A stretch of 64,000 bases of DNA from Escherichia phage RB32: the sequence record NC_008515.1; one strand, 5' to 3'. The notes beneath the pieces are model-generated. The model saw only the letters and a list, made by a program, of their open reading frames with translations. It had not been told where the DNA came from and did no database searches. A program made the translations under genes and the position numbers. Below are positions 4,334 to 62,004 of this stretch, piece by piece. Every line of letters begins with the position of its first letter. Positions within the stretch are counted from its first letter, which is position 1.

Positions 4334-4603
4334 TTATTTAAAACGAATAGTCGAATCCTTGAAGAATAGTCCAGAACATACTGTTCCTTCTACTTTCTGC
4401 CCAGTAGGTCCAATAGCACGAAATCCAGTATGCTGGAAATCATTTTCAGAGCAACCGAACCAATTATATCCAGTGATTTCAATATTAGTAAAACCGCTTG
4501 AAGACAAAACTTTGGTTGCATTATCAGCATCAGTACATCCTATTAAAGACACTGCTAATACTAATGCTGCAATAGAACGATTAACATATTTCATAATTTT
4601 CAC
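4334..4603 (-). CDS. putative lipoprotein (signal peptide with lipobox-like LIGC)
   Basis: 89-aa ORF, N-terminus MKIMKYVNRSIAALVLAVSLIGC. Confidence 0.6.
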   Translation of the reverse strand: MKIMKYVNRSIAALVLAVSLIGCTDADNATKVLSSSGFTNIEITGYNWFGCSENDFQHTGFRAIGPTGQKVEGTVCSGLFFKDSTIRFK

Positions 4604-11318: not shown

Positions 11319-11921
11319 TTATAGATTAAATCCTTCAAAATCAAGAGTATAGATAGTGTATGTTGAATACTTTTTGTACTCATATCTATCTGCAATTCTA
11401 AATACACTTCCAGCTGGTATCATTACTTCTTGTTCATCTGAAACTAATTCCATATTACGATAGCGATGACTATCCGGAAACTTAAAGTTTGGATTGTATT
11501 CTTTACAGCGTAGAGCTTTTATAGCATACTCCTGGAAATTGAATACCATAGGAGCTTTGAATTCAAAAATAACTTGTGTGTTATACTCTAAACCAGAAGC
11601 AAAATGTAGAGCTATATTTTTATCATATGAAGCTGATACGACTTTATCAAATGTAATAATATCAATTCCTTGATTTAATACTTGCTTAGTCTCGACTGGA
11701 ACACCTCTCCAAAGAGGTTTATCGTTTGGAACCAAACGAGATTTGATTATTTCATTTAACCAAGTATGGTCATCTGGTTTGTTGGTAATACAATGAATTA
11801 AAAGTTCAATTTCAGATAAATTAAACCCTTCAGAAAGTAATTCTTCACGAATAGAAGCACGCACCGATGCATCCATTGATTTTATTTTAAAATCTTTTAG
11901 TTGCATTACTGAGTATTTCAT
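11319..11921 (-). CDS. modA: ADP-ribosyltransferase ModA
   Basis: 200-aa ORF, same length and position as T4 ModA; sequence-related to the adjacent 207-aa ORF. Confidence 0.7.
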   Translation of the reverse strand: MKYSVMQLKDFKIKSMDASVRASIREELLSEGFNLSEIELLIHCITNKPDDHTWLNEIIKSRLVPNDKPLWRGVPVETKQVLNQGIDIITFDKVVSASYDKNIALHFASGLEYNTQVIFEFKAPMVFNFQEYAIKALRCKEYNPNFKFPDSHRYRNMELVSDEQEVMIPAGSVFRIADRYEYKKYSTYTIYTLDFEGFNL

Positions 11922-12541
11922 TCAACTACCTCAATATCATAAACTTTAAATGTTCCAAATGAATCGTGTAATTTTTCTTTTGAAATAGAAGTTATTCTAT
12001 ACTTTCCAATTGGAATCATCCATTCTTGTTCACGCACAATCATCATTAAGTTATCAGTACGTTCTGAATCTAATCCATCAGTATCTTCATACGTGTACTT
12101 AAACTCAGTATTAGGAGAAGAAAGTATAATATCGCTGATATGGTCAGAATAATTAAAAGCTTTATCAGTTTTTAAGCGAAATATTATTTCAGTGAAATAC
12201 TCAACATAAGAAAAACCACATGCTGTGTGCAAACTAGTAGTAAATGAATCTACCCTGTTCGTTGAAAACACTTCTCCAACTTGTAAATCTTTAATGAGTT
12301 CTTTTGTCGATTTTGATATACCACGATATAACTGATATGGTGATTTAGTTAAATGCTTTTTAATGATTTTATTCAACTGCCTATGAAGAGCTTCATTCTT
12401 TTTGGCTTCCATACATTGCCAAAGAATTGACTGTTCAAAGTCAGTAAATTTTTCACAGACCTTTTTATACATATCATATTGAAAATCAACGCTTTCAGCT
12501 TTTATAGATAACTGTTCAACATCTGCAAGATTAATAATCAT
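11918..12541 (-). CDS. modB: ADP-ribosyltransferase ModB
   Basis: 207-aa ORF immediately upstream of modA with ATGA overlap; length equals T4 ModB. Confidence 0.7.
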   Translation of the reverse strand: MIINLADVEQLSIKAESVDFQYDMYKKVCEKFTDFEQSILWQCMEAKKNEALHRQLNKIIKKHLTKSPYQLYRGISKSTKELIKDLQVGEVFSTNRVDSFTTSLHTACGFSYVEYFTEIIFRLKTDKAFNYSDHISDIILSSPNTEFKYTYEDTDGLDSERTDNLMMIVREQEWMIPIGKYRITSISKEKLHDSFGTFKVYDIEVVE

Positions 12542-17505: not shown

Positions 17506-17550
17506 ATTAACCTTTATTCATAAAAGCATTAAAAATTTGGTCATCAATAG
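17503..17550. repeat. 48-bp direct repeat, copy B
   Basis: catattaacctttattcataaaagcattaaaaatttggtcatcaatag. Confidence 0.8.
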
Positions 17551-18127
17551 AAACATTTACTTTAGACTGTTTTTCTGATGGTAATTCATATCCACATATT
17601 ACAATTTTGTGATCAATATCAAAATACACAGAAGCAATATGATTAATGATGTTTTCAGTAAAGTCTAAATCAACATCAATATCTTTTTGACCACAGCCCA
17701 AAGGATAAATAATGCGAGTAATTCGATTATCTTTAACAAATATTCCACCGACATACTCTGTGCTGCGTTTAAAGTCTACACGCCGACGAAATGAAAAATA
17801 TTCAGGCTCTCTATGAGCTCGGCTCATAGGACACAACGAGTAACTAGAATAAGAGATGTCAAATCCTACGCCTTCGATATGAGCCAAAGTGTCATGATTA
17901 AACCAATTATAATCGTACGCCAAATCCATTAGATTATAATATGTAAAAGGCACCGGATTAACATCATTAGTCACAAGCATGTAATTAGCAACTGCTATAA
18001 TTTCATTGTTTTTAACGAATACAAACCGTGATTGATGCGAATGACCTGGACCCGCGTTTTCACGATTAATGATATAACACTGAGACTTTTTATATTTGTA
18101 AGAATCATACTTATACATTTGAAACAT
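17507..18127 (-). CDS. hypothetical protein (61.2-like position)
   Basis: 206-aa ORF ending VSIDDQIFNAFMNKG. Confidence 0.55.
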   Translation of the reverse strand: MFQMYKYDSYKYKKSQCYIINRENAGPGHSHQSRFVFVKNNEIIAVANYMLVTNDVNPVPFTYYNLMDLAYDYNWFNHDTLAHIEGVGFDISYSSYSLCPMSRAHREPEYFSFRRRVDFKRSTEYVGGIFVKDNRITRIIYPLGCGQKDIDVDLDFTENIINHIASVYFDIDHKIVICGYELPSEKQSKVNVSIDDQIFNAFMNKG

Positions 18128-24010: not shown

Positions 24011-24403
24011 TCACTTAGTCAAATTTTTTACACATGAATTATAAGAATTCACTACATACTCCATCGGAGCATTTTTACCTGTACGCCATTGGTAATTATT
24101 AGCCCAATTTGCCCAAAGTTCTGCGCAGTAGTTTTCAATTTTTTCTTCGCGTGTAATTACATCCGAATTACGATATGCTTGAGCAGATTCATCTGGACGA
24201 ATAGCTTCGTCAAAATTCGCCTGCATTTGTTCTACTGTTTGCTTTGAAGCTTCTTTATAACACTTGACATTAGGATTATAAAATTTGCTTGAACAGTTTA
24301 CAATTTTTCCTGCATCAGACTGATTTACTACCGGTCCTTGAGCTACACAACCAGTAAGACCTAATGCAATAACCAAAATAGCGATTTTCATTTCATTCTC
24401 CAA
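24011..24403 (-). CDS. putative lipoprotein (imm.1 position)
   Basis: 130-aa ORF, signal peptide with LTGC lipobox. Confidence 0.6.
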   Translation of the reverse strand: MENEMKIAILVIALGLTGCVAQGPVVNQSDAGKIVNCSSKFYNPNVKCYKEASKQTVEQMQANFDEAIRPDESAQAYRNSDVITREEKIENYCAELWANWANNYQWRTGKNAPMEYVVNSYNSCVKNLTK

Positions 24404-56447: not shown

Positions 56448-57029
56448 CTAACCGAGTTTTTTAGTTAATTCATTCCAATGTTTTCTACACAAAGAAACAT
56501 AAATTTCATCACCAATACAGATTTGATTACCTTCTTTAACGGGTGTTCCATCTTCCATTAATCGAGCTGTCATAATAGCTTTTTTACCACAATGACAAAC
56601 TGCCTTTAGTTCAATAAGTTTATCTGCAATCGCCAAAAGTTCTTTAGAACCTTCAAACAATTTTCCAGCGAAATCAGTCCTTAATCCATAAGCCATAACA
56701 GGAACATTATATGTATCAACAATTCGGCTCAATTGATGCACCTGTTCAGTTTTTAAAAACTGGGCTTCATCTACAAATACGCAATGAATATCTTTTTGTG
56801 CTTCAGCCCATTTATAGAACTCGAAAATATCCATATCATCTGTAATAATATTCGCTTCCTGCTTAATTCCAATGCGAGAAACGACTTCACAGACAGAATC
56901 ACGAGTATCAATAGCAGGCTTAAGAACTAATACACTCATTCCACGTTCTTTATAATTGTGTGCAGCAGTCAAAAGAGAAGCAGATTTTCCAGCATTCATT
57001 GCTGCATAAGTAAAAATTAAACTCGCCAT
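56448..57029 (-). CDS. tk: thymidine kinase
   Basis: 193-aa ORF, P-loop NAGKSASLL, zinc site CHCGKKA; length equals T4 Tk. Confidence 0.9.
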   Translation of the reverse strand: MASLIFTYAAMNAGKSASLLTAAHNYKERGMSVLVLKPAIDTRDSVCEVVSRIGIKQEANIITDDMDIFEFYKWAEAQKDIHCVFVDEAQFLKTEQVHQLSRIVDTYNVPVMAYGLRTDFAGKLFEGSKELLAIADKLIELKAVCHCGKKAIMTARLMEDGTPVKEGNQICIGDEIYVSLCRKHWNELTKKLG

Positions 57030-57030
57030 C

Positions 57031-57219
57031 TTAGTCCTTAGTTAAATTTTCTAAATATGTTTCTAAATCATTTTCAGCTTTATCGATAGATTTTACTAAT
57101 TCATAATATGTTTCGGCATCTCCATAATCAGAAGATAATTCAAAAGACAAATCCTTTTCTAAACTAATAATTTCACCAACTAAAAATAATATTTCGTTCT
57201 TTTGTTCGCGAGTAATCAT
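57031..57219 (-). CDS. small acidic helical protein (tk.1 position)
   Basis: 62-aa ORF MITREQKNEILFLVGEIISLEKDL... Confidence 0.5.
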   Translation of the reverse strand: MITREQKNEILFLVGEIISLEKDLSFELSSDYGDAETYYELVKSIDKAENDLETYLENLTKD

Positions 57220-57401
57220 AAGGAATTTATATAATTAATAAGTTCTTGTTCTTTATTATCGAATTCTTTAGAAAGTTCTTCGTACTCGTTTGCACTAAAA
57301 GGACCGCATTCATTACAAACTTTTTCCAATTCACTATTTTTATCCATAACTTCATGGATAAGAGAAAAGAGTTTGTCTTTTTGTTCTTTGCTTAGGCTCA
57401 T
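57216..57401 (-). CDS. small acidic helical protein (tk.2 position), paralogue of tk.1-like ORF
   Basis: 61-aa ORF MSLSKEQKDKLFSLIHEVMDKNSEL... Confidence 0.5.
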   Translation of the reverse strand: MSLSKEQKDKLFSLIHEVMDKNSELEKVCNECGPFSANEYEELSKEFDNKEQELINYINSL

Positions 57402-57571
57402 ATATTAATTTCCAGAAGTTTTAAAATAATTCGCTTTTGCTTAAATATTTCCATAGTTAAATGATCAGTATCTTTTTGACCAATTCCAATAGCAAAACCT
57501 TTATTAGCAACGAGTTCAATTAAATTATCAAGTTCACGTGACACTTCATATTGTAACTCAGAACTATTCAT
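57398..57571 (-). CDS. small hypothetical protein (tk.3 position), below ORF-track cutoff
   Basis: 57-codon ORF read by hand (MNSSELQYEVSRELDNLIELVANKGFAIGIGQKDTDHLTMEIFKQKRIILKLLEINI); ATGA-coupled at both ends. Confidence 0.4.
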   Translation of the reverse strand: MNSSELQYEVSRELDNLIELVANKGFAIGIGQKDTDHLTMEIFKQKRIILKLLEINI

Positions 57572-57795
57572 TTCGGTTTACCTTCTTTAACGAAATCTGG
57601 ATAAGGATAAAATCCCGAATAAAATCCTTCACCTTTATGATTGATGCATCCTTTATTAGAACAATAGCACCAATAATCGAAATCACAAGCCATTTCATCA
57701 TTACATAAAGCAAAAACAACCGGCCATTTACACTTTTCACAATGGGCATTTTTAAGAATACTAGTTTGGCTCATAACCATGTAACCTTTAAGCAA
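57568..57795 (-). CDS. cysteine-rich small protein (probable zinc-binding)
   Basis: 75-aa ORF with CEKCKW...CNDEMACDFDYWCYCSNKGCINH. Confidence 0.5.
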   Translation of the reverse strand: MLKGYMVMSQTSILKNAHCEKCKWPVVFALCNDEMACDFDYWCYCSNKGCINHKGEGFYSGFYPYPDFVKEGKPK

Positions 57796-57998
57796 TATTC
57801 TTCTACATGTTGTTTACGACCTTTCTTATCAATAAAGGTATATTCAACGAATGTTCCAATGTAGTCTTTATCTACATCATGTGGACTATTAATTGGACAT
57901 TTAGTACGACAAATGCGTTCCCATTGACGAATAATTACTGTCTTATTCTTTGGGTCATATGGATGTGGATAATGTATATTCATAATAATGGTTCCCAA
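57771..57998 (-). CDS. hypothetical protein
   Basis: 75-aa ORF. Confidence 0.45.
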   Translation of the reverse strand: MGTIIMNIHYPHPYDPKNKTVIIRQWERICRTKCPINSPHDVDKDYIGTFVEYTFIDKKGRKQHVEEYCLKVTWL

Positions 57999-58447
57999 TC
58001 AACAATCACAATTTCTAATTTAGAGGAATATGTATCTAAAATCCCCTCAATAATATCCCAGTTCCCTTTACCTATGCCTGCACCAATCCTAGGCATATAG
58101 ATTGTAGGTTTAGTCAGTTTATTTTCACCAAACTCATTTAATTCTAACATACAATTCATTAAAGCGGAATACTCAAAATTTGGCCCTGGTTGAAATTGAG
58201 TATAAAGATTAAAGCAATACGCTTTATGAGTCCTAAAGTATTTTTCATAGACTGAGTAAGAACCGAGTTTAGTTACATCACCACATTCAGTCTGTAATTT
58301 ATCAGCTTCCAAAATTTTAGGGAAAGCTTTGGTTAATTGACCCGCTACACCTGAACCCATAGTATGAAAACAATTGCATCCATGCGCAATATTTTTACCT
58401 TCAGCGAAAAGGGCGACAATATCGCCCTTGATATATTTTACAATCAT
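57980..58447 (-). CDS. macro-domain-like protein (ADP-ribose binding/processing fold)
   Basis: 155-aa ORF; N-terminus IVKYIKGDIVALFAEGKNIAHGCNCFHTMGSGVAGQL resembles macrodomain GD[IV]...N.AN....GGGV pattern. Confidence 0.5.
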   Translation of the reverse strand: MIVKYIKGDIVALFAEGKNIAHGCNCFHTMGSGVAGQLTKAFPKILEADKLQTECGDVTKLGSYSVYEKYFRTHKAYCFNLYTQFQPGPNFEYSALMNCMLELNEFGENKLTKPTIYMPRIGAGIGKGNWDIIEGILDTYSSKLEIVIVDWEPLL

Positions 58448-58791
58448 CTAGTACTCAATCCTCGATTATAAGAATCTACCAAACGGTCAACCATTGAATG
58501 ACAAGCGGCTTTATCTTTCTCCTCCGCAACTGAACATTCTAAGGTATTCCACTTTTTAGCATATCGTTTTAATAATGTATCGTTTTTGTATCTGCTTGAT
58601 TTATCTCTTTCTCCGTCTTTATATGCATATATTAATTTCTGTGCAAATTCAGCTTGGCATGCTTTATTTTTCCCACAATAATCTGCCGCAGTGCGGTTTA
58701 CATATTCTCTAATTTCAGTATATGATGTATCTGCTGACGCAGAAGCAGAAAATGAAATTAATCCTATACATAAAACCAAAATTTTAGTCAT
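58444..58791 (-). CDS. secreted/periplasmic protein (cleavable signal peptide)
   Basis: 115-aa ORF, N-terminus MTKILVLCIGLISFSASASA. Confidence 0.55.
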   Translation of the reverse strand: MTKILVLCIGLISFSASASADTSYTEIREYVNRTAADYCGKNKACQAEFAQKLIYAYKDGERDKSSRYKNDTLLKRYAKKWNTLECSVAEEKDKAACHSMVDRLVDSYNRGLSTR

Positions 58792-59329
58792 TTACTATTT
58801 CCAAAAGTTTATTATTTTTAAGGTAATTAGCCTTTTCTAGGACTTCAGAAGCATATTTAGAACCTGCTTTAACATTCCATCCCGAATTATAAGAGGATAT
58901 TGCTTTTCTTATATCGCCCTTATGTATATTTAACCAATAAGAAAGTTCAATGTACGCCCAGGAAGCTGAATTGGATCGTTTATTCAACATTCTTTTTATT
59001 TCAGCATCGGTCATATTATAACCAAGTTCCTTAACTCTTGCTCGCATAGTAGGCAAATAATTTTGGAACATTCCGTAGGCATGATGCTTTGGTTTAGATT
59101 TTAAATTAACTCCGCCAGAGCTTTCTTGCCATAAAATAGCAGCCATTATATGACCTAATCCGCTCTTGTGGATATTTTTATGTGTTTTATATTTTCCATC
59201 CTTAGAAAATTGTTCCCCGAATTGATACGCGTAACGCATGTTATCGAGTTGGACATTACTGAAAGTATGCTCGGAGCTATGTGCCATCATTGAAATGGCC
59301 AATAGACCAGCGAGTAGTGCTTTTCTCAT
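58784..59329 (-). CDS. secreted lytic-transglycosylase-domain protein
   Basis: 181-aa ORF with signal peptide MRKALLAGLLAISMMAHS and SLT-like motifs ILWQESSG, AYGMFQ, SYNSG. Confidence 0.6.
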   Translation of the reverse strand: MRKALLAGLLAISMMAHSSEHTFSNVQLDNMRYAYQFGEQFSKDGKYKTHKNIHKSGLGHIMAAILWQESSGGVNLKSKPKHHAYGMFQNYLPTMRARVKELGYNMTDAEIKRMLNKRSNSASWAYIELSYWLNIHKGDIRKAISSYNSGWNVKAGSKYASEVLEKANYLKNNKLLEIVND

Positions 59330-59336
59330 GCTTACC

Positions 59337-59798
59337 TCATTGAGTTTTAATTACTGCTTTAGAAGCCTTTCCTGGTAAACGACGACTATTGATAATTGCC
59401 ATCCTGCACTGAAGTGACGGGTCTTTGAACTTCGCATTAGGTTTACAAACTGTAAATCCAAGCCAAAGATTTCCATCTGTGATTTCTAAACGTCCAGGAC
59501 GATATTCAACCCCATCAATAAAATCCTCGTCAATGTCAGGACGCGGAGGCATACTCAGGAATTCATTAACTTCTAAAACATGGTCTTTTATTTTATGGAA
59601 TAATTCAAAAACGTATGTCTCATCAATCTCCCGTTGAATTGCGCGATCAAGAAGATGCTGAGAATATTTTAGATGAAACGATGAGACCCCTGCTGCTTTT
59701 GATGCCTCACGAATCTCATTGTTAATTTGACGAAACTCCGACTCAAAGTGACGACGAAGCTTATTTCGACGGATAAAAACTTCTGTATTGATAGTCAT
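59337..59798 (-). CDS. regB: endoribonuclease RegB
   Basis: 153-aa ORF; length and position (between tk/vs region and the IP/e region) as T4 RegB. Confidence 0.75.
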   Translation of the reverse strand: MTINTEVFIRRNKLRRHFESEFRQINNEIREASKAAGVSSFHLKYSQHLLDRAIQREIDETYVFELFHKIKDHVLEVNEFLSMPPRPDIDEDFIDGVEYRPGRLEITDGNLWLGFTVCKPNAKFKDPSLQCRMAIINSRRLPGKASKAVIKTQ

Positions 59799-59825: not shown

Positions 59826-59855
59826 ATTATACCACAGTCAAGAGGAAAAGTAAAC
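59826..59855 (-). promoter_or_regulatory. early promoter (-35 GTTTAC, 18-bp spacer, -10 TATAAT)
   Basis: minus strand GTTTACttttcctcttgactgtggTATAAT upstream of regB. Confidence 0.5.
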
Positions 59856-59857
59856 AA

Positions 59858-60136
59858 TTATTCTTTAAATCTAATCAATTTATTCATAGACTTTGAAACT
59901 TCTGCACGAACCTCATGTAGATTTTTGAGCTGTTCAAGACGCTGCGTATAGTAAGCAATTTCATCTTCTTCGAGACAGTCCTGTGAATCTTCTTTAAGAT
60001 AACGTGTATAGTCCTGAAAAGCGTTACGAACTACTTCCTGGAAATCATCAAGACTTTGAATTTTCTTAGTAGCAGCAGATACATGACGAGGGGCAGTATA
60101 ATACTCATAACCAAACCCTGCGCTTAATTGAGCCAT
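59858..60136 (-). CDS. hypothetical protein
   Basis: ORF track 59858..60178; internal Met [13 protein letters not shown] gives TAATG-type coupling. Confidence 0.45.
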
Positions 60137-60402
60137 TAGTATTTTTCCTCTGGTTGGAACACTGCACGACAAGCCCACATACTGGCTTCTTTGAGTTTCG
60201 TTTTAGCAATAGTTAACTGATCGAGGCTTTCGGCGTAATTCTTCACGAGTTCATCATCTTCACAATTATCTAGTGCTTCCCAGAATTCATCATACAAAGC
60301 ATCAAAGATAAGTCCTAAACGAACTTCAGCATCTTTGATAGCATTCACTTTACTGATTTTATCGTCAGTATGTGGCTTATAACCTTTAATGTCTTCAATC
60401 AT
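60136..60402 (-). CDS. hypothetical protein
   Basis: ORF track 60136..60438; internal Met at 60402. Confidence 0.45.
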
Positions 60403-60616
60403 ATTTGACTTCCTCACCAGTACATAAATCGTATTCAACTAAACGAATAGGTTCATGAATGCCATATCCCTGAACAGAAATTTCTGTCGTAGGATAAATT
60501 CCGTCAATATCACCCATATTCCACGCTTCATTAAATTGCTGTTCGCCTGAATTACTAAACCACTCGGCGAAAGCATTTAGAACATCTTTAGAACCTTCAA
60601 TAATTATCTTTGCCAT
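60395..60616 (-). CDS. hypothetical protein
   Basis: 73-aa ORF. Confidence 0.5.
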   Translation of the reverse strand: MAKIIIEGSKDVLNAFAEWFSNSGEQQFNEAWNMGDIDGIYPTTEISVQGYGIHEPIRLVEYDLCTGEEVKYD

Positions 60617-60978
60617 TACAAACTCTCGGTGAAGGTACGAGCGATAACGTCGCGCTGCTGTTCCGGAGTCAGAGAGTTAAAGCGAACTGCATAACCGGAT
60701 ACACGGATGGTCAGCTGCGGATATTTTTCCGGATGCTTAACTGCATCTTCCAGAGTTTCACGACGCAGAACGTTAACGTTCAGGTGTTGACCACCTTCAA
60801 TTTTAACTGTAGGCTGTGGCTCAATTTCAATTTCACGGGCATGCAAACCATAGAAAATTTCTGGGTCTACAAAAGAGTCCTCTTTAAAGGTTTTAGAAAC
60901 GATAATTCGTGCTTGAATACCATCTTCAAAATAAATAGTACCTTTATGTGTGCCTTCAAGAATTTGATATGCTTTCAT
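60616..60978 (-). CDS. autonomous glycyl-radical cofactor (GrcA/YfiD-like)
   Basis: 120-aa ORF; C-terminal ...[56 protein letters not shown] carries the RVSGY glycyl-radical motif; 3' half is GC-rich with host-like codons. Confidence 0.8.
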
Positions 60979-60985
60979 ATAAACC

Positions 60986-61315
60986 TCAATTAGAAAATAA
61001 ATTTATCCAAGATTGTTCTTTAATTAAAAATGGCTCAGAATCATATGCCATTAAACTTTGCGTAATTAATCCTTTAAAAGGTCCATCAATAAATTCCATG
61101 GTAAAATATGGAATTTTATTCATTAGCCGTGCATTAGGAGCCGTGCACAAAACTCTGCATCCTTTGAATACACCTTTTTGTAATTTGTATTGCTTGGGAT
61201 AAAATTCGCTCAAAATGTTATTATTTGCTAAAATTTCAAAATGATTCACCAATTTATTTTTAATAGTTTTTGGCGAAAAATAAAGATATTCGAAAAGCTG
61301 AGTGTCTGTCATCAT
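60986..61315 (-). CDS. hypothetical protein (possibly C-terminal part of a frameshifted gene)
   Basis: ORF track 60986..61366; internal Met [10 protein letters not shown]; overlaps upstream ORF in another frame. Confidence 0.4.
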
Positions 61316-61851
61316 TGCATTCCGATTACGAAAAACTGTGGACGAGTAATACCACCAATACAACATTTAATATTACAGCAGCAGTGTACAGTGTCAATAT
61401 GGACACTATAAATCTTATCCATATCAGGAGATTTGACGGGCTCATCAATTATATACAAAATTCGCGAAAGCGATAAACCTCTGAACTTGCTTCCTTTATT
61501 ACCAATAAAACTGCGCACAGAATCAGTAAATAAACGAAAACGTATATCATCATTAGAATAACGCGAAAATTCCTTTTTAATGTTATTTGCAGAAATTTTA
61601 GCGTAAGCTGAAGTATTAGAAAGAACAATAACTGTTCCGCCATCATACAACCAATTAGCAGCAAAGTTAGTCACAGCAATTGATTTACCGGATTGACGTC
61701 CACCATCTAGTCGAAGTGTGCAATACTGTTTAAGTAAGTCTTCAAATGGTGGAATATAATCGTTTTTACAAATTTCTTCTACTCTAGCATCAGAATGGTG
61801 TGTAAAAGCATTCATCAGGGATAGATAAGGACCAGTTAAAAATGTTCTCAT
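61312..61851 (-). CDS. P-loop NTPase-like protein (possibly truncated/frameshifted)
   Basis: ORF track 61312..61899; start MRTFLTGPYLSL; Walker A-like GGRQSGKS, Walker B-like ILYIIDEP; odd Cys-rich C-terminal tail. Confidence 0.4.
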   Translation of the reverse strand: MRTFLTGPYLSLMNAFTHHSDARVEEICKNDYIPPFEDLLKQYCTLRLDGGRQSGKSIAVTNFAANWLYDGGTVIVLSNTSAYAKISANNIKKEFSRYSNDDIRFRLFTDSVRSFIGNKGSKFRGLSLSRILYIIDEPVKSPDMDKIYSVHIDTVHCCCNIKCCIGGITRPQFFVIGMQ

Positions 61852-62004
61852 TTTATTCTCTCTAGGTTTGGGCCATTCCATGGCGCATGAATTGTCCATT
61901 TCTGTATTTACCCATTACCGCACTTGGGCTCGACCTTATTACAGGTTGGCGGGAATCCCTCACAGAATCATGAGGTCCAGCTTGTTCCCATATTTCTTAT
62001 TTGC

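Follow-up and report, generated by a model that had tools for sequence, protein, structure and literature searches.

Which functions are encoded between tk and regB in a T4-like phage, and do the genes of this interval work together? The question is raised by positions 57568-59329 of a 64,000-nucleotide stretch of Escherichia phage RB32 (NC_008515.1), here called the window (coordinates refer to it unless a record or locus is named). A first-pass annotation made from the sequence alone described a cluster of four genes here, encoding a zinc-binding-like, a macrodomain-like, and two signal-peptide proteins, one of them resembling lytic transglycosylases. All four open reading frames (ORFs) are present on the minus strand. 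Very probably, the interval is part of the early gene string of T4-type phages, in which Tk.4 would be the macrodomain protein AdfM, Vs.1 an exported transglycosylase, Vs a protein whose gene is coupled to vs.1, and RB32ORF111c a small Cys4 protein. The "cluster" is ordinary early-gene packing of the T4 type, and no functional link joins the four genes beyond the vs.1-vs pair. The first-pass annotation is largely correct: its macrodomain reading is right and already demonstrated, and its transglycosylase assignment is right and old. It missed tk.3 and did not recognise tk.4, vs, and vs.1 as named T4 genes. As the gene names are known, the domain assignments are about 20 years old, and the role of the macrodomain in defence was reported in 2025, little is new here. 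The sole lead with some potential, read from the sequence, is that Vs carries a predicted export signal and is coupled to Vs.1.

Over the 2.6 kb surrounding the interval, the DNA is 100% identical to that of Enterobacteria phage RB33 (KM607001.1, whose coordinates minus 119 give window positions) and 98% identical to T2, RB14, RB18, and several hundred further Tequatrovirus genomes. Gene order is common to RB33, RB14, and the T4 annotation, with all genes of the locus on the minus strand. Vs and Vs.1 are identical to their T4 counterparts (115/115 residues and 100%, respectively), while Tk.4 and Tk.3 match in 153/155 and 69/70 residues, and therefore knowledge from T4 applies here. With transcription running leftward, the string would comprise regB, vs.1, vs, tk.4, tk.3, (RB32ORF111c, RB32ORF110c), tk.2, tk.1, and tk and would represent a patchwork of non-essential accessory genes rather than one machine. 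In T4, tk.3, tk.4, vs, and vs.1 are each non-essential.

Vs.1 matches the Pfam family SLT (PF01464; GH23) over residues 61-154, with 25.1 bits against a gathering score of 21.3. SLT enzymes are defined by a catalytic Glu-Ser, a GxxQ, and an (A/S)YNxG motif. Among 38 homologues, the glutamate whose presence the first-pass annotation had proposed to check, E69, is invariant and S70 nearly so, both at the end of helix 59-70. Moreover, G86/F88/Q89/N90 and Y147/N148/G150 are invariant, and the N-terminal signal peptide is kept together with the three SLT motifs in 38/38 aligned sequences. The fold is goose-lysozyme-like and resembles Slt70, MltF, and MltE. On the model, Vs.1 is an exported SLT-type (goose-lysozyme fold) lytic transglycosylase whose activity and biological role are presumed. 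It would be made with a Sec signal peptide and work in the periplasm, where, as a family-1 (SLT) lytic transglycosylase, it would use Glu69 as its catalytic acid. Two points weigh against this assignment. The Pfam score is barely over its threshold, and single-sequence and profile searches of solved structures give no significant sequence match, so that only the fold comparison matched. The enzyme is distinct from endolysin e and the baseplate lysozyme, as had been stated, in belonging to a different family (Pfam SLT); e and gp5 are T4-lysozyme-type proteins. Compared with the small periplasmic SLT/GH23 enzymes (E. coli Slt70 catalytic domain, MltE, and EtgA), Vs.1 has an N-terminal helix with invariant Q27/N30/G38, its homologues are confined to phages (77 clusters, 2044 phage records; T4-like, Ackermannviridae-like, and Felixounavirus-like), and its gene is coupled to vs. 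Resemblance of vs.1 to SLT proteins had been noted in 2003-2006; the 2006 publication refers to PSI-BLAST matches made before it.

The coupling extends across related phages. Both genes are present in 57 of 80 loci seeded with Vs.1, and in 49 of these 57 the vs start overlaps the vs.1 stop or lies at most 5 nucleotides from it; in the other eight, vs follows 0.5-1.2 kb downstream. Conversely, vs.1 is present on the contig of every Vs-seeded locus. Among related phages, tk.3, ORF111c, and tk.4 come and go, while vs.1-vs stays, and nine loci retain the pair without tk.4. A vs profile finds no match in 23 of the 80 Vs.1-seeded loci, nearly all of which have a divergent Vs.1 in another genomic context. 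In locus L044, a Vs-like ORF is recognised by eye directly after vs.1. A divergent Vs.1 group (~30% identity, 199-205 residues, four cysteines, signal peptide) occurs in Det7-type phages of ~157 kb (loci L055-L079, e.g. L056:4953-5570), where it lies in a different context beside large ORFs of ~770 and 800-920 residues and no Vs homologue is detected. Weaker Vs.1 relatives are also found in Felixounavirus-like phages of 84-89 kb.

The 115-residue protein is T4 Vs, without any sequence difference (phrog_1256, E 2e-39). Its annotated function is that of a valyl-tRNA synthetase (ValRS) modifier, according to the passage of PMC8076793 that cites Muller and Marchin 1975/1977, and we retain this annotation. 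Vs would thus bind the host ValRS and be encoded by a gene coupled to vs.1. The signal peptide proposed for this protein is borne out in the sequence: MTK supplies the basic residue, followed by an uncharged hydrophobic stretch of 11 residues and SASASA↓D with its small-x-small site. The predicted mature protein has 95 residues, 11.0 kDa, and four conserved cysteines; the purified factor is reportedly roughly 10 kDa. Despite variable sequence, the signal-type N-terminus is shared by all 13 homologues from databases and by a further nine, more distant sequences taken from related loci. Homologues as distant as 21% identity all retain C86, C97, and C45, while C39 is kept in closer homologues and displaced in the three most divergent sequences. 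The conserved cysteines form two close (short-range) pairs.

Signal peptides were assigned by a home-made rule (basic n-region, uncharged h-region of 9-16 residues, and small residues at -3 and -1). Of 183 window ORFs of at least 50 residues, it flags seven: Vs, Vs.1, Sp, rI, two lipobox proteins, and one spurious ORF. Sp and rI are known periplasmic proteins and serve as positive controls. The lipoprotein-type N-termini belong to two small ORFs on the minus strand, one of 86 residues (4334-4594, SLIG↓C) and one of 126 residues annotated as imm.1 (24011-24391, GLTG↓C). The Vs family is confined to T4-like phages, with 8 representative clusters in a full scan of 1.84 billion representative proteins, and searches against Pfam give scattered hits at chance level only. 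A relationship to the two-disulfide protein CP12 was considered and rejected (weak PDB hits at E 0.4-0.65; profile comparison probability 23%).

A protein with an export signal would not be expected to have its target in the cytoplasm, and this weighs against retaining the annotated function of Vs. The signal peptide, the four conserved cysteines, and the coupling to vs.1 fit poorly with a purely cytoplasmic role. We tentatively consider that Vs may instead be Sec-exported and disulfide-bonded, working as a periplasmic partner of Vs.1 in a conserved two-gene envelope module that was ancestrally next to the lysis-inhibition gene rI. ValRS binding would then be secondary, occurring after cell breakage, or the vs locus would have been assigned to this ORF by position. 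In favour of export are the basic residue, hydrophobic stretch, AxA-type site, and cysteine pairs kept across the family, the rule that also picks Sp and rI, the tight vs.1/vs spacing and its persistence without tk.4, the presence of vs.1 on every Vs-seeded contig, the restriction of the family to T4-like phages, and the gene order of distant phages described below. Further, Vs bearing an N-terminal His tag is insoluble in the cytoplasm of E. coli, and the 11.0 kDa predicted for the cleaved protein is near the reported size of the purified factor. In the 1986 T4 deposit X04567.1 (L112:4861-6210), vs.1, vs, and tk.4 appear unnamed as ORFs 61.4, 60.9, and 60.5, and putative -35/-10 elements are marked ahead of ORF 61.4 and ORF 60.5; our search, which did not reach the old papers, traced no basis for assigning the genetic vs locus to ORF 60.9. 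On the other side, the phage factor was reportedly purified bound to ValRS, with in vivo effects in valS(ts) hosts. Synteny is generally high among T4-like phages, and the vs.1-vs adjacency is therefore weak evidence for export.

Transposon data from T4 bear on both sides of this question. In liquid lysogeny broth (LB), vs and vs.1 show 26.6 and 22.6 mean reads per site (Extended Data Table 6, 10.1101/2025.11.20.689424), and their neighbours show 179 (regB), 290 (tk.4), 767 (tk.3), and 652 (vs.3; same source). Per site, insertions in flanking non-essential genes thus have roughly 7-30 times as many reads as those in vs and vs.1; the text of that paper treats only vs in minimal medium (M9). There, both genes are lower still (vs log2 -2.19, q = 0; vs.1 -0.87, p = 0.0055), and a drop of -1.20 (q = 0.015) is seen for vs.1 on a clinical isolate (10.1101/2025.11.20.689424). 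The likeness of the two profiles fits a shared pathway, as expected for an exported Vs, and equally polarity of vs.1 insertions on vs, which counts against drawing on it for export. Vs as an inhibitor (immunity protein) of Vs.1 is disfavoured because vs.1 insertions are non-neutral and mimic vs insertions in T4.

Downstream of vs, distant T4-like phages encode a conserved signal-peptide protein of ~140 residues (L048:5842-6859, L051:5812-6804, L054:5830-6859, L044:5823-6266, and L052:5864-6304). In L048, L051, and L054, a membrane-anchored protein of ~100 residues and an rI-like exported protein come next, placing vs.1-vs within a series of envelope proteins. The vs and rI genes of T4 and RB33 have tk and tk.1-tk.4 between them. 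The literature searched contains no discussion of the export-like sequence of Vs. If Vs is exported, the poor growth of vs mutants in minimal medium would trace to the envelope, and the account of ValRS modification would have to be revisited; this could reframe the question, standing since the 1960s, of what purpose the T4 modification of ValRS serves. What we add is the tension between the annotation of Vs and a family apparently built for export and tied to a periplasmic peptidoglycan-cleaving enzyme.

Tk.4, encoded next in the string, is linked to phage defence by work on T4. In a November 2025 preprint (bioRxiv 10.1101/2025.11.20.689424), a transposon screen against DarTG2 yields tk.4 as its single T4 hit, and T4 with a clean tk.4 knockout is sensitised to DarTG2; the gene was renamed adfM, and its product is termed a DarG homologue. 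In earlier work, T4 without adfA and adfN was still DarTG2-resistant. The idea that the macrodomain could reverse defensive ADP-ribosylation, put forward by the first-pass annotation with a DarTG test, holds for T4 tk.4; it is correct but not new, since the need for tk.4 against DarTG2 was reported in 2025. The protein encoded here has the same length as T4 AdfM and the same position between vs and tk.3, and its two substitutions (C55 for W and T112 for I) fall at positions that vary within the family. Tk.4 would be this phage's copy of AdfM, shielding phage DNA from the DarT2 toxin of DarTG2. Because T4 tk.4 is needed against DarTG2 and SCO6735 cleaves thymidine-linked ADP-ribose, Tk.4 is most likely a glycohydrolase that removes ADP-ribose from DNA thymidine and thereby counters DarT2. 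It would most likely hydrolyse ADP-ribose off thymidines in single-stranded DNA, an enzymatic step that we infer. PhiKZ gp104, likewise named AdfM, strips ADP-ribose from DarT2-modified DNA in vitro (Cell Rep 2026, PMC13309987). Both are phage macrodomains countering DarTG2, and a conserved Asn matters in gp104, while Tk.4 has the invariant N25. In contrast, PhiKZ is an unrelated jumbo phage, and gp104 is imported into its phage nucleus; we liken the two by description.

Tk.4 matches Pfam Macro (PF01661) over residues 22-132 with 28.0 bits against a gathering score of 22, an A1pp/macro assignment published in 2003-2006. Its fold is a three-layer α/β/α arrangement with a central mixed sheet. 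Sequence matches to solved structures are BT1257 (E 6.5e-10), yeast Poa1p (E 2e-6), human TARG1 (E 2e-4), the Thermus DarG macrodomain (E 3.6e-4), and SCO6735 (E 4.5e-4). A second list of figures runs from BT1257 (18.4), Poa1p (17.9), and M. tuberculosis DarG (17.5) to Thermosipho DarTG with ADP-ribose (17.0) and TARG1 (16.8). The model and the profile comparisons place Tk.4 in the ALC1-like (TARG1/DarG/Poa1p) macrodomain class and confirm the macrodomain-like character described before. Among 60 homologues, the glycine-rich loops lining the ADP-ribose cleft are conserved (G33, A35, P119, I121, G122, and G124 invariant, G128 nearly so), as are N25 and the phosphate-loop glycines, and the loop residues align with PRIGCG of TARG1 and BT1257. 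Y82-T83-Q84 is invariant in 60/60. Relatives of Tk.4 occur in 2845 of 50,697 phage records.

The active site sets Tk.4 apart within this class. TARG1 K84, DarG K80, and SCO6735 Gln85 are equivalent, and SCO6735 and BT1257 make up a subclass that needs no lysine to cleave thymidine-linked ADP-ribose, SCO6735 Q85A being inactive (PMC9411070). In hhalign comparisons, Tk.4 Q84 lies opposite TARG1 K84 and pairs with the Gln of "MIGQ" in BT1257, while Gly126 lies opposite the TARG1 partner residue D125. With Gln84 replacing the catalytic lysine and no Asp partner, Tk.4 therefore probably uses a positioned water instead of a Lys nucleophile. Its active site would be of the SCO6735/BT1257 type. SCO6735 (Streptomyces coelicolor; PDB 5E3B) and BT1257 (Bacteroides; PDB 2FG1/2AFC), both Gln-type ALC1-like proteins, share the Gln position with Tk.4. 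In contrast, the HGCNC motif of Tk.4 is nearer that of Poa1p, and its loop is six residues shorter, with a gap directly after Q84 relative to BT1257. This gap falls at the "mobile loop", which in the SCO6735/BT1257 subclass is five residues longer than in DarG and TARG1. DarG of DarTG2 (PDB 5M3I, 5M31, and 7OMU) has Lys80 where Tk.4 has Gln84 and carries a second, DarT-binding domain that is missing from Tk.4. A true DarG is rejected: the NCBIfam equivalog NF048014 scores 29.4 bits against a cut-off of 250, its match spans profile positions 2-146 of 338, where Tk.4 ends, and both the second domain and the catalytic Lys are absent. By its sequence, Tk.4 appears to be a short-loop, Gln-type, stand-alone macrodomain that works like DarG and SCO6735 and is a strict member of neither. 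We thus place AdfM closest to SCO6735/BT1257 and not as a DarG copy, a placement that predicts catalysis independent of a Lys nucleophile and singles out Q84 and N25.

Several points speak against Tk.4 as an enzyme that removes ADP-ribose. The DarTG2 phenotype comes from T4 only, from a preprint, and with one DarTG2 system, and the literature searched contains no biochemistry on T4 or RB33 Tk.4. Tk.4 does not have the longer "mobile loop" of the SCO6735/BT1257 subclass, and the transfer of their mechanism is therefore inferred. Moreover, SCO6735 also inhibits DarT by interaction (PMC9411070), and Tk.4 may act merely by binding DarT2 or the DarT2 product.

The early region holds several ADP-ribosylation-related genes that do not adjoin tk.4: modA and modB (11319-12541, minus strand) and 61.2 (17507-18127, minus strand), which lies beside sp and is the T4 equivalent of AdfA, an anti-DarT factor.

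Instead of a DNA de-ADP-ribosylase, Tk.4 might be a housekeeping-type ADP-ribose-1''-phosphate phosphatase like yeast Poa1p, in line with the RefSeq label "phosphatase"; we consider this improbable. Its HxCNC motif resembles HSCNC of Poa1p, and published conserved-domain searches matched four of six tk.4 orthologues full-length to the A1pp phosphatase domain. However, Poa1p has Ser at the position of the invariant Gln84 in the alignment, and we know of no source of ADP-ribose-1''-phosphate in T4 infection. Moreover, a Gln at this position is needed for cleavage of thymidine-linked ADP-ribose by SCO6735 (PMC9411070), and the sole known tk.4 phenotype is DarTG2-specific (10.1101/2025.11.20.689424).

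It is highly improbable that Tk.4 edits the phage's own ADP-ribosylation by reversing the marks or RNA chains that Alt, ModA, and ModB set on host proteins. Macrodomains generally reverse protein ADP-ribosylation, and modA and modB lie in the same window, but the T4 transferases (ModA, ModB) modify arginine. For the TARG1/DarG/SCO6735 class, acidic residues and thymidine are given as the substrates (PMC9411070), while arginine reversal is ascribed to another macrodomain type in the title of PMC10951314. Without DarTG2, tk.4 insertions are neutral (log2FC -0.07 to +0.13; 10.1101/2025.11.20.689424). The link to ModA and ModB drawn in the first-pass annotation finds no counterpart here, as none of our results connects Tk.4 to either protein.

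It is hardly credible that the four genes, in fact five, act together as a single module, such as an ADP-ribosylation and envelope counter-defence island: they are cotranscribed and translationally coupled, and another anti-DarT gene (the 61.2/AdfA homologue) lies in the same early region, but tight ATGA packing is the rule across the whole T4 region, gene content varies freely around the constant vs.1-vs pair (ORF111c is not in T4), and transposon phenotypes differ between the genes.

Features of the tk-regB locus (window coordinates)
Feature	Position	Strand	Remarks
regB	59337-59798	-	
vs.1	58784-59329	-	181 aa
Vs.1 signal peptide, about residues 1-18	59276-59329	-	
Vs.1 catalytic Glu69 codon	59123-59125	-	
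vs	58444-58791	-	115 aa
Vs Sec-like signal peptide, residues 1-20 (predicted)	58732-58791	-	ends ASA↓D
tk.4 (= adfM in T4)	57980-58447	-	155 aa
Tk.4 Gln84 codon	58196-58198	-	opposite catalytic Lys of TARG1 (K84) and DarG (K80); Gln85 of SCO6735
tk.3	57771-57983	-	70 aa
RB32ORF111c	57568-57780	-	70 aa
RB32ORF110c	57398-57571	-	57 aa; just outside the 57568-59329 interval
tk.2	57216-57401	-	
tk.1	57031-57219	-	
tk	56448-57029	-	
Sigma-70-type promoter-like site	59826-59854	-	TTTACT, 17 nt, TATAAT, with TG; upstream of regB

ATGA-type overlaps occur at each junction from vs through tk.2, and vs.1 and vs overlap by 8 nucleotides. The tk-regB span holds eight ORFs compared with six in T4, the extras being RB32ORF110c and RB32ORF111c. 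The first-pass comparison with the T4 vs.1-vs.8 block, which gave the present region the smaller number of ORFs, is mistaken: in T4, as here, regB sits between vs.1 and vs.3, with vs.3-vs.8 upstream of regB (59858-61899 in the window). The promoter-like site is the top match of a consensus scan (10/12), a match to the consensus alone, and is a plausible candidate early promoter for regB, vs.1, vs, tk.4, and the following genes. Promoter and terminator scans of the region give site counts that are not above shuffled expectation.

RB32ORF111c matches PF23895 (Phage_zn_bind; E 3e-29, 101 bits against a cut-off of 27), which upholds the zinc-binding-like description but not the length of 75 residues given with it. 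ATG starts at 57780 and 57774 yield 70 and 68 residues, the start region overlapping the tk.3 stop, while the 75-residue version (57568-57795) needs a TTG start. In 18 distinct homologues, only C14, C17, C40, and C46 together with N48 and H49 are invariant (CxxC ... CSNKxCxNH), while the remaining three of its seven cysteines are not conserved. By this pattern, which agrees with the name of the Pfam family, RB32ORF111c is a small protein of Cys4 zinc-site type. RB32ORF110c is annotated in RB33 and RB14 (phrog_3452, E 2e-31); like RB32ORF111c, it is present in T2/RB14/RB32-type phages and absent from T4. The tk.3 protein matches PF23832 (DUF7202; E 7e-38) and has a conserved N-terminal motif, HYPHP.DPK.K; its gene overlaps the tk.4 stop by ATGA.

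A perfect, GC-rich inverted repeat of 8-9 bp, AAGGGCGA...TCGCCCTT, spans 58409-58429 within codons 7-13 of tk.4 and is flagged on the plus strand by the terminator scan. As a special RNA element, this hairpin is rejected, its folding energy being ordinary (z = -0.72). In the RB33 GenBank record, tk.2 is annotated with 132 nucleotides (57216-57347 in the window), which leaves a gap. The full tk.2 ORF is intact, encodes 61 residues of which 59 are identical to T4 Tk.2, and overlaps the RB32ORF110c stop; the deposited tk.2 start is probably wrong.

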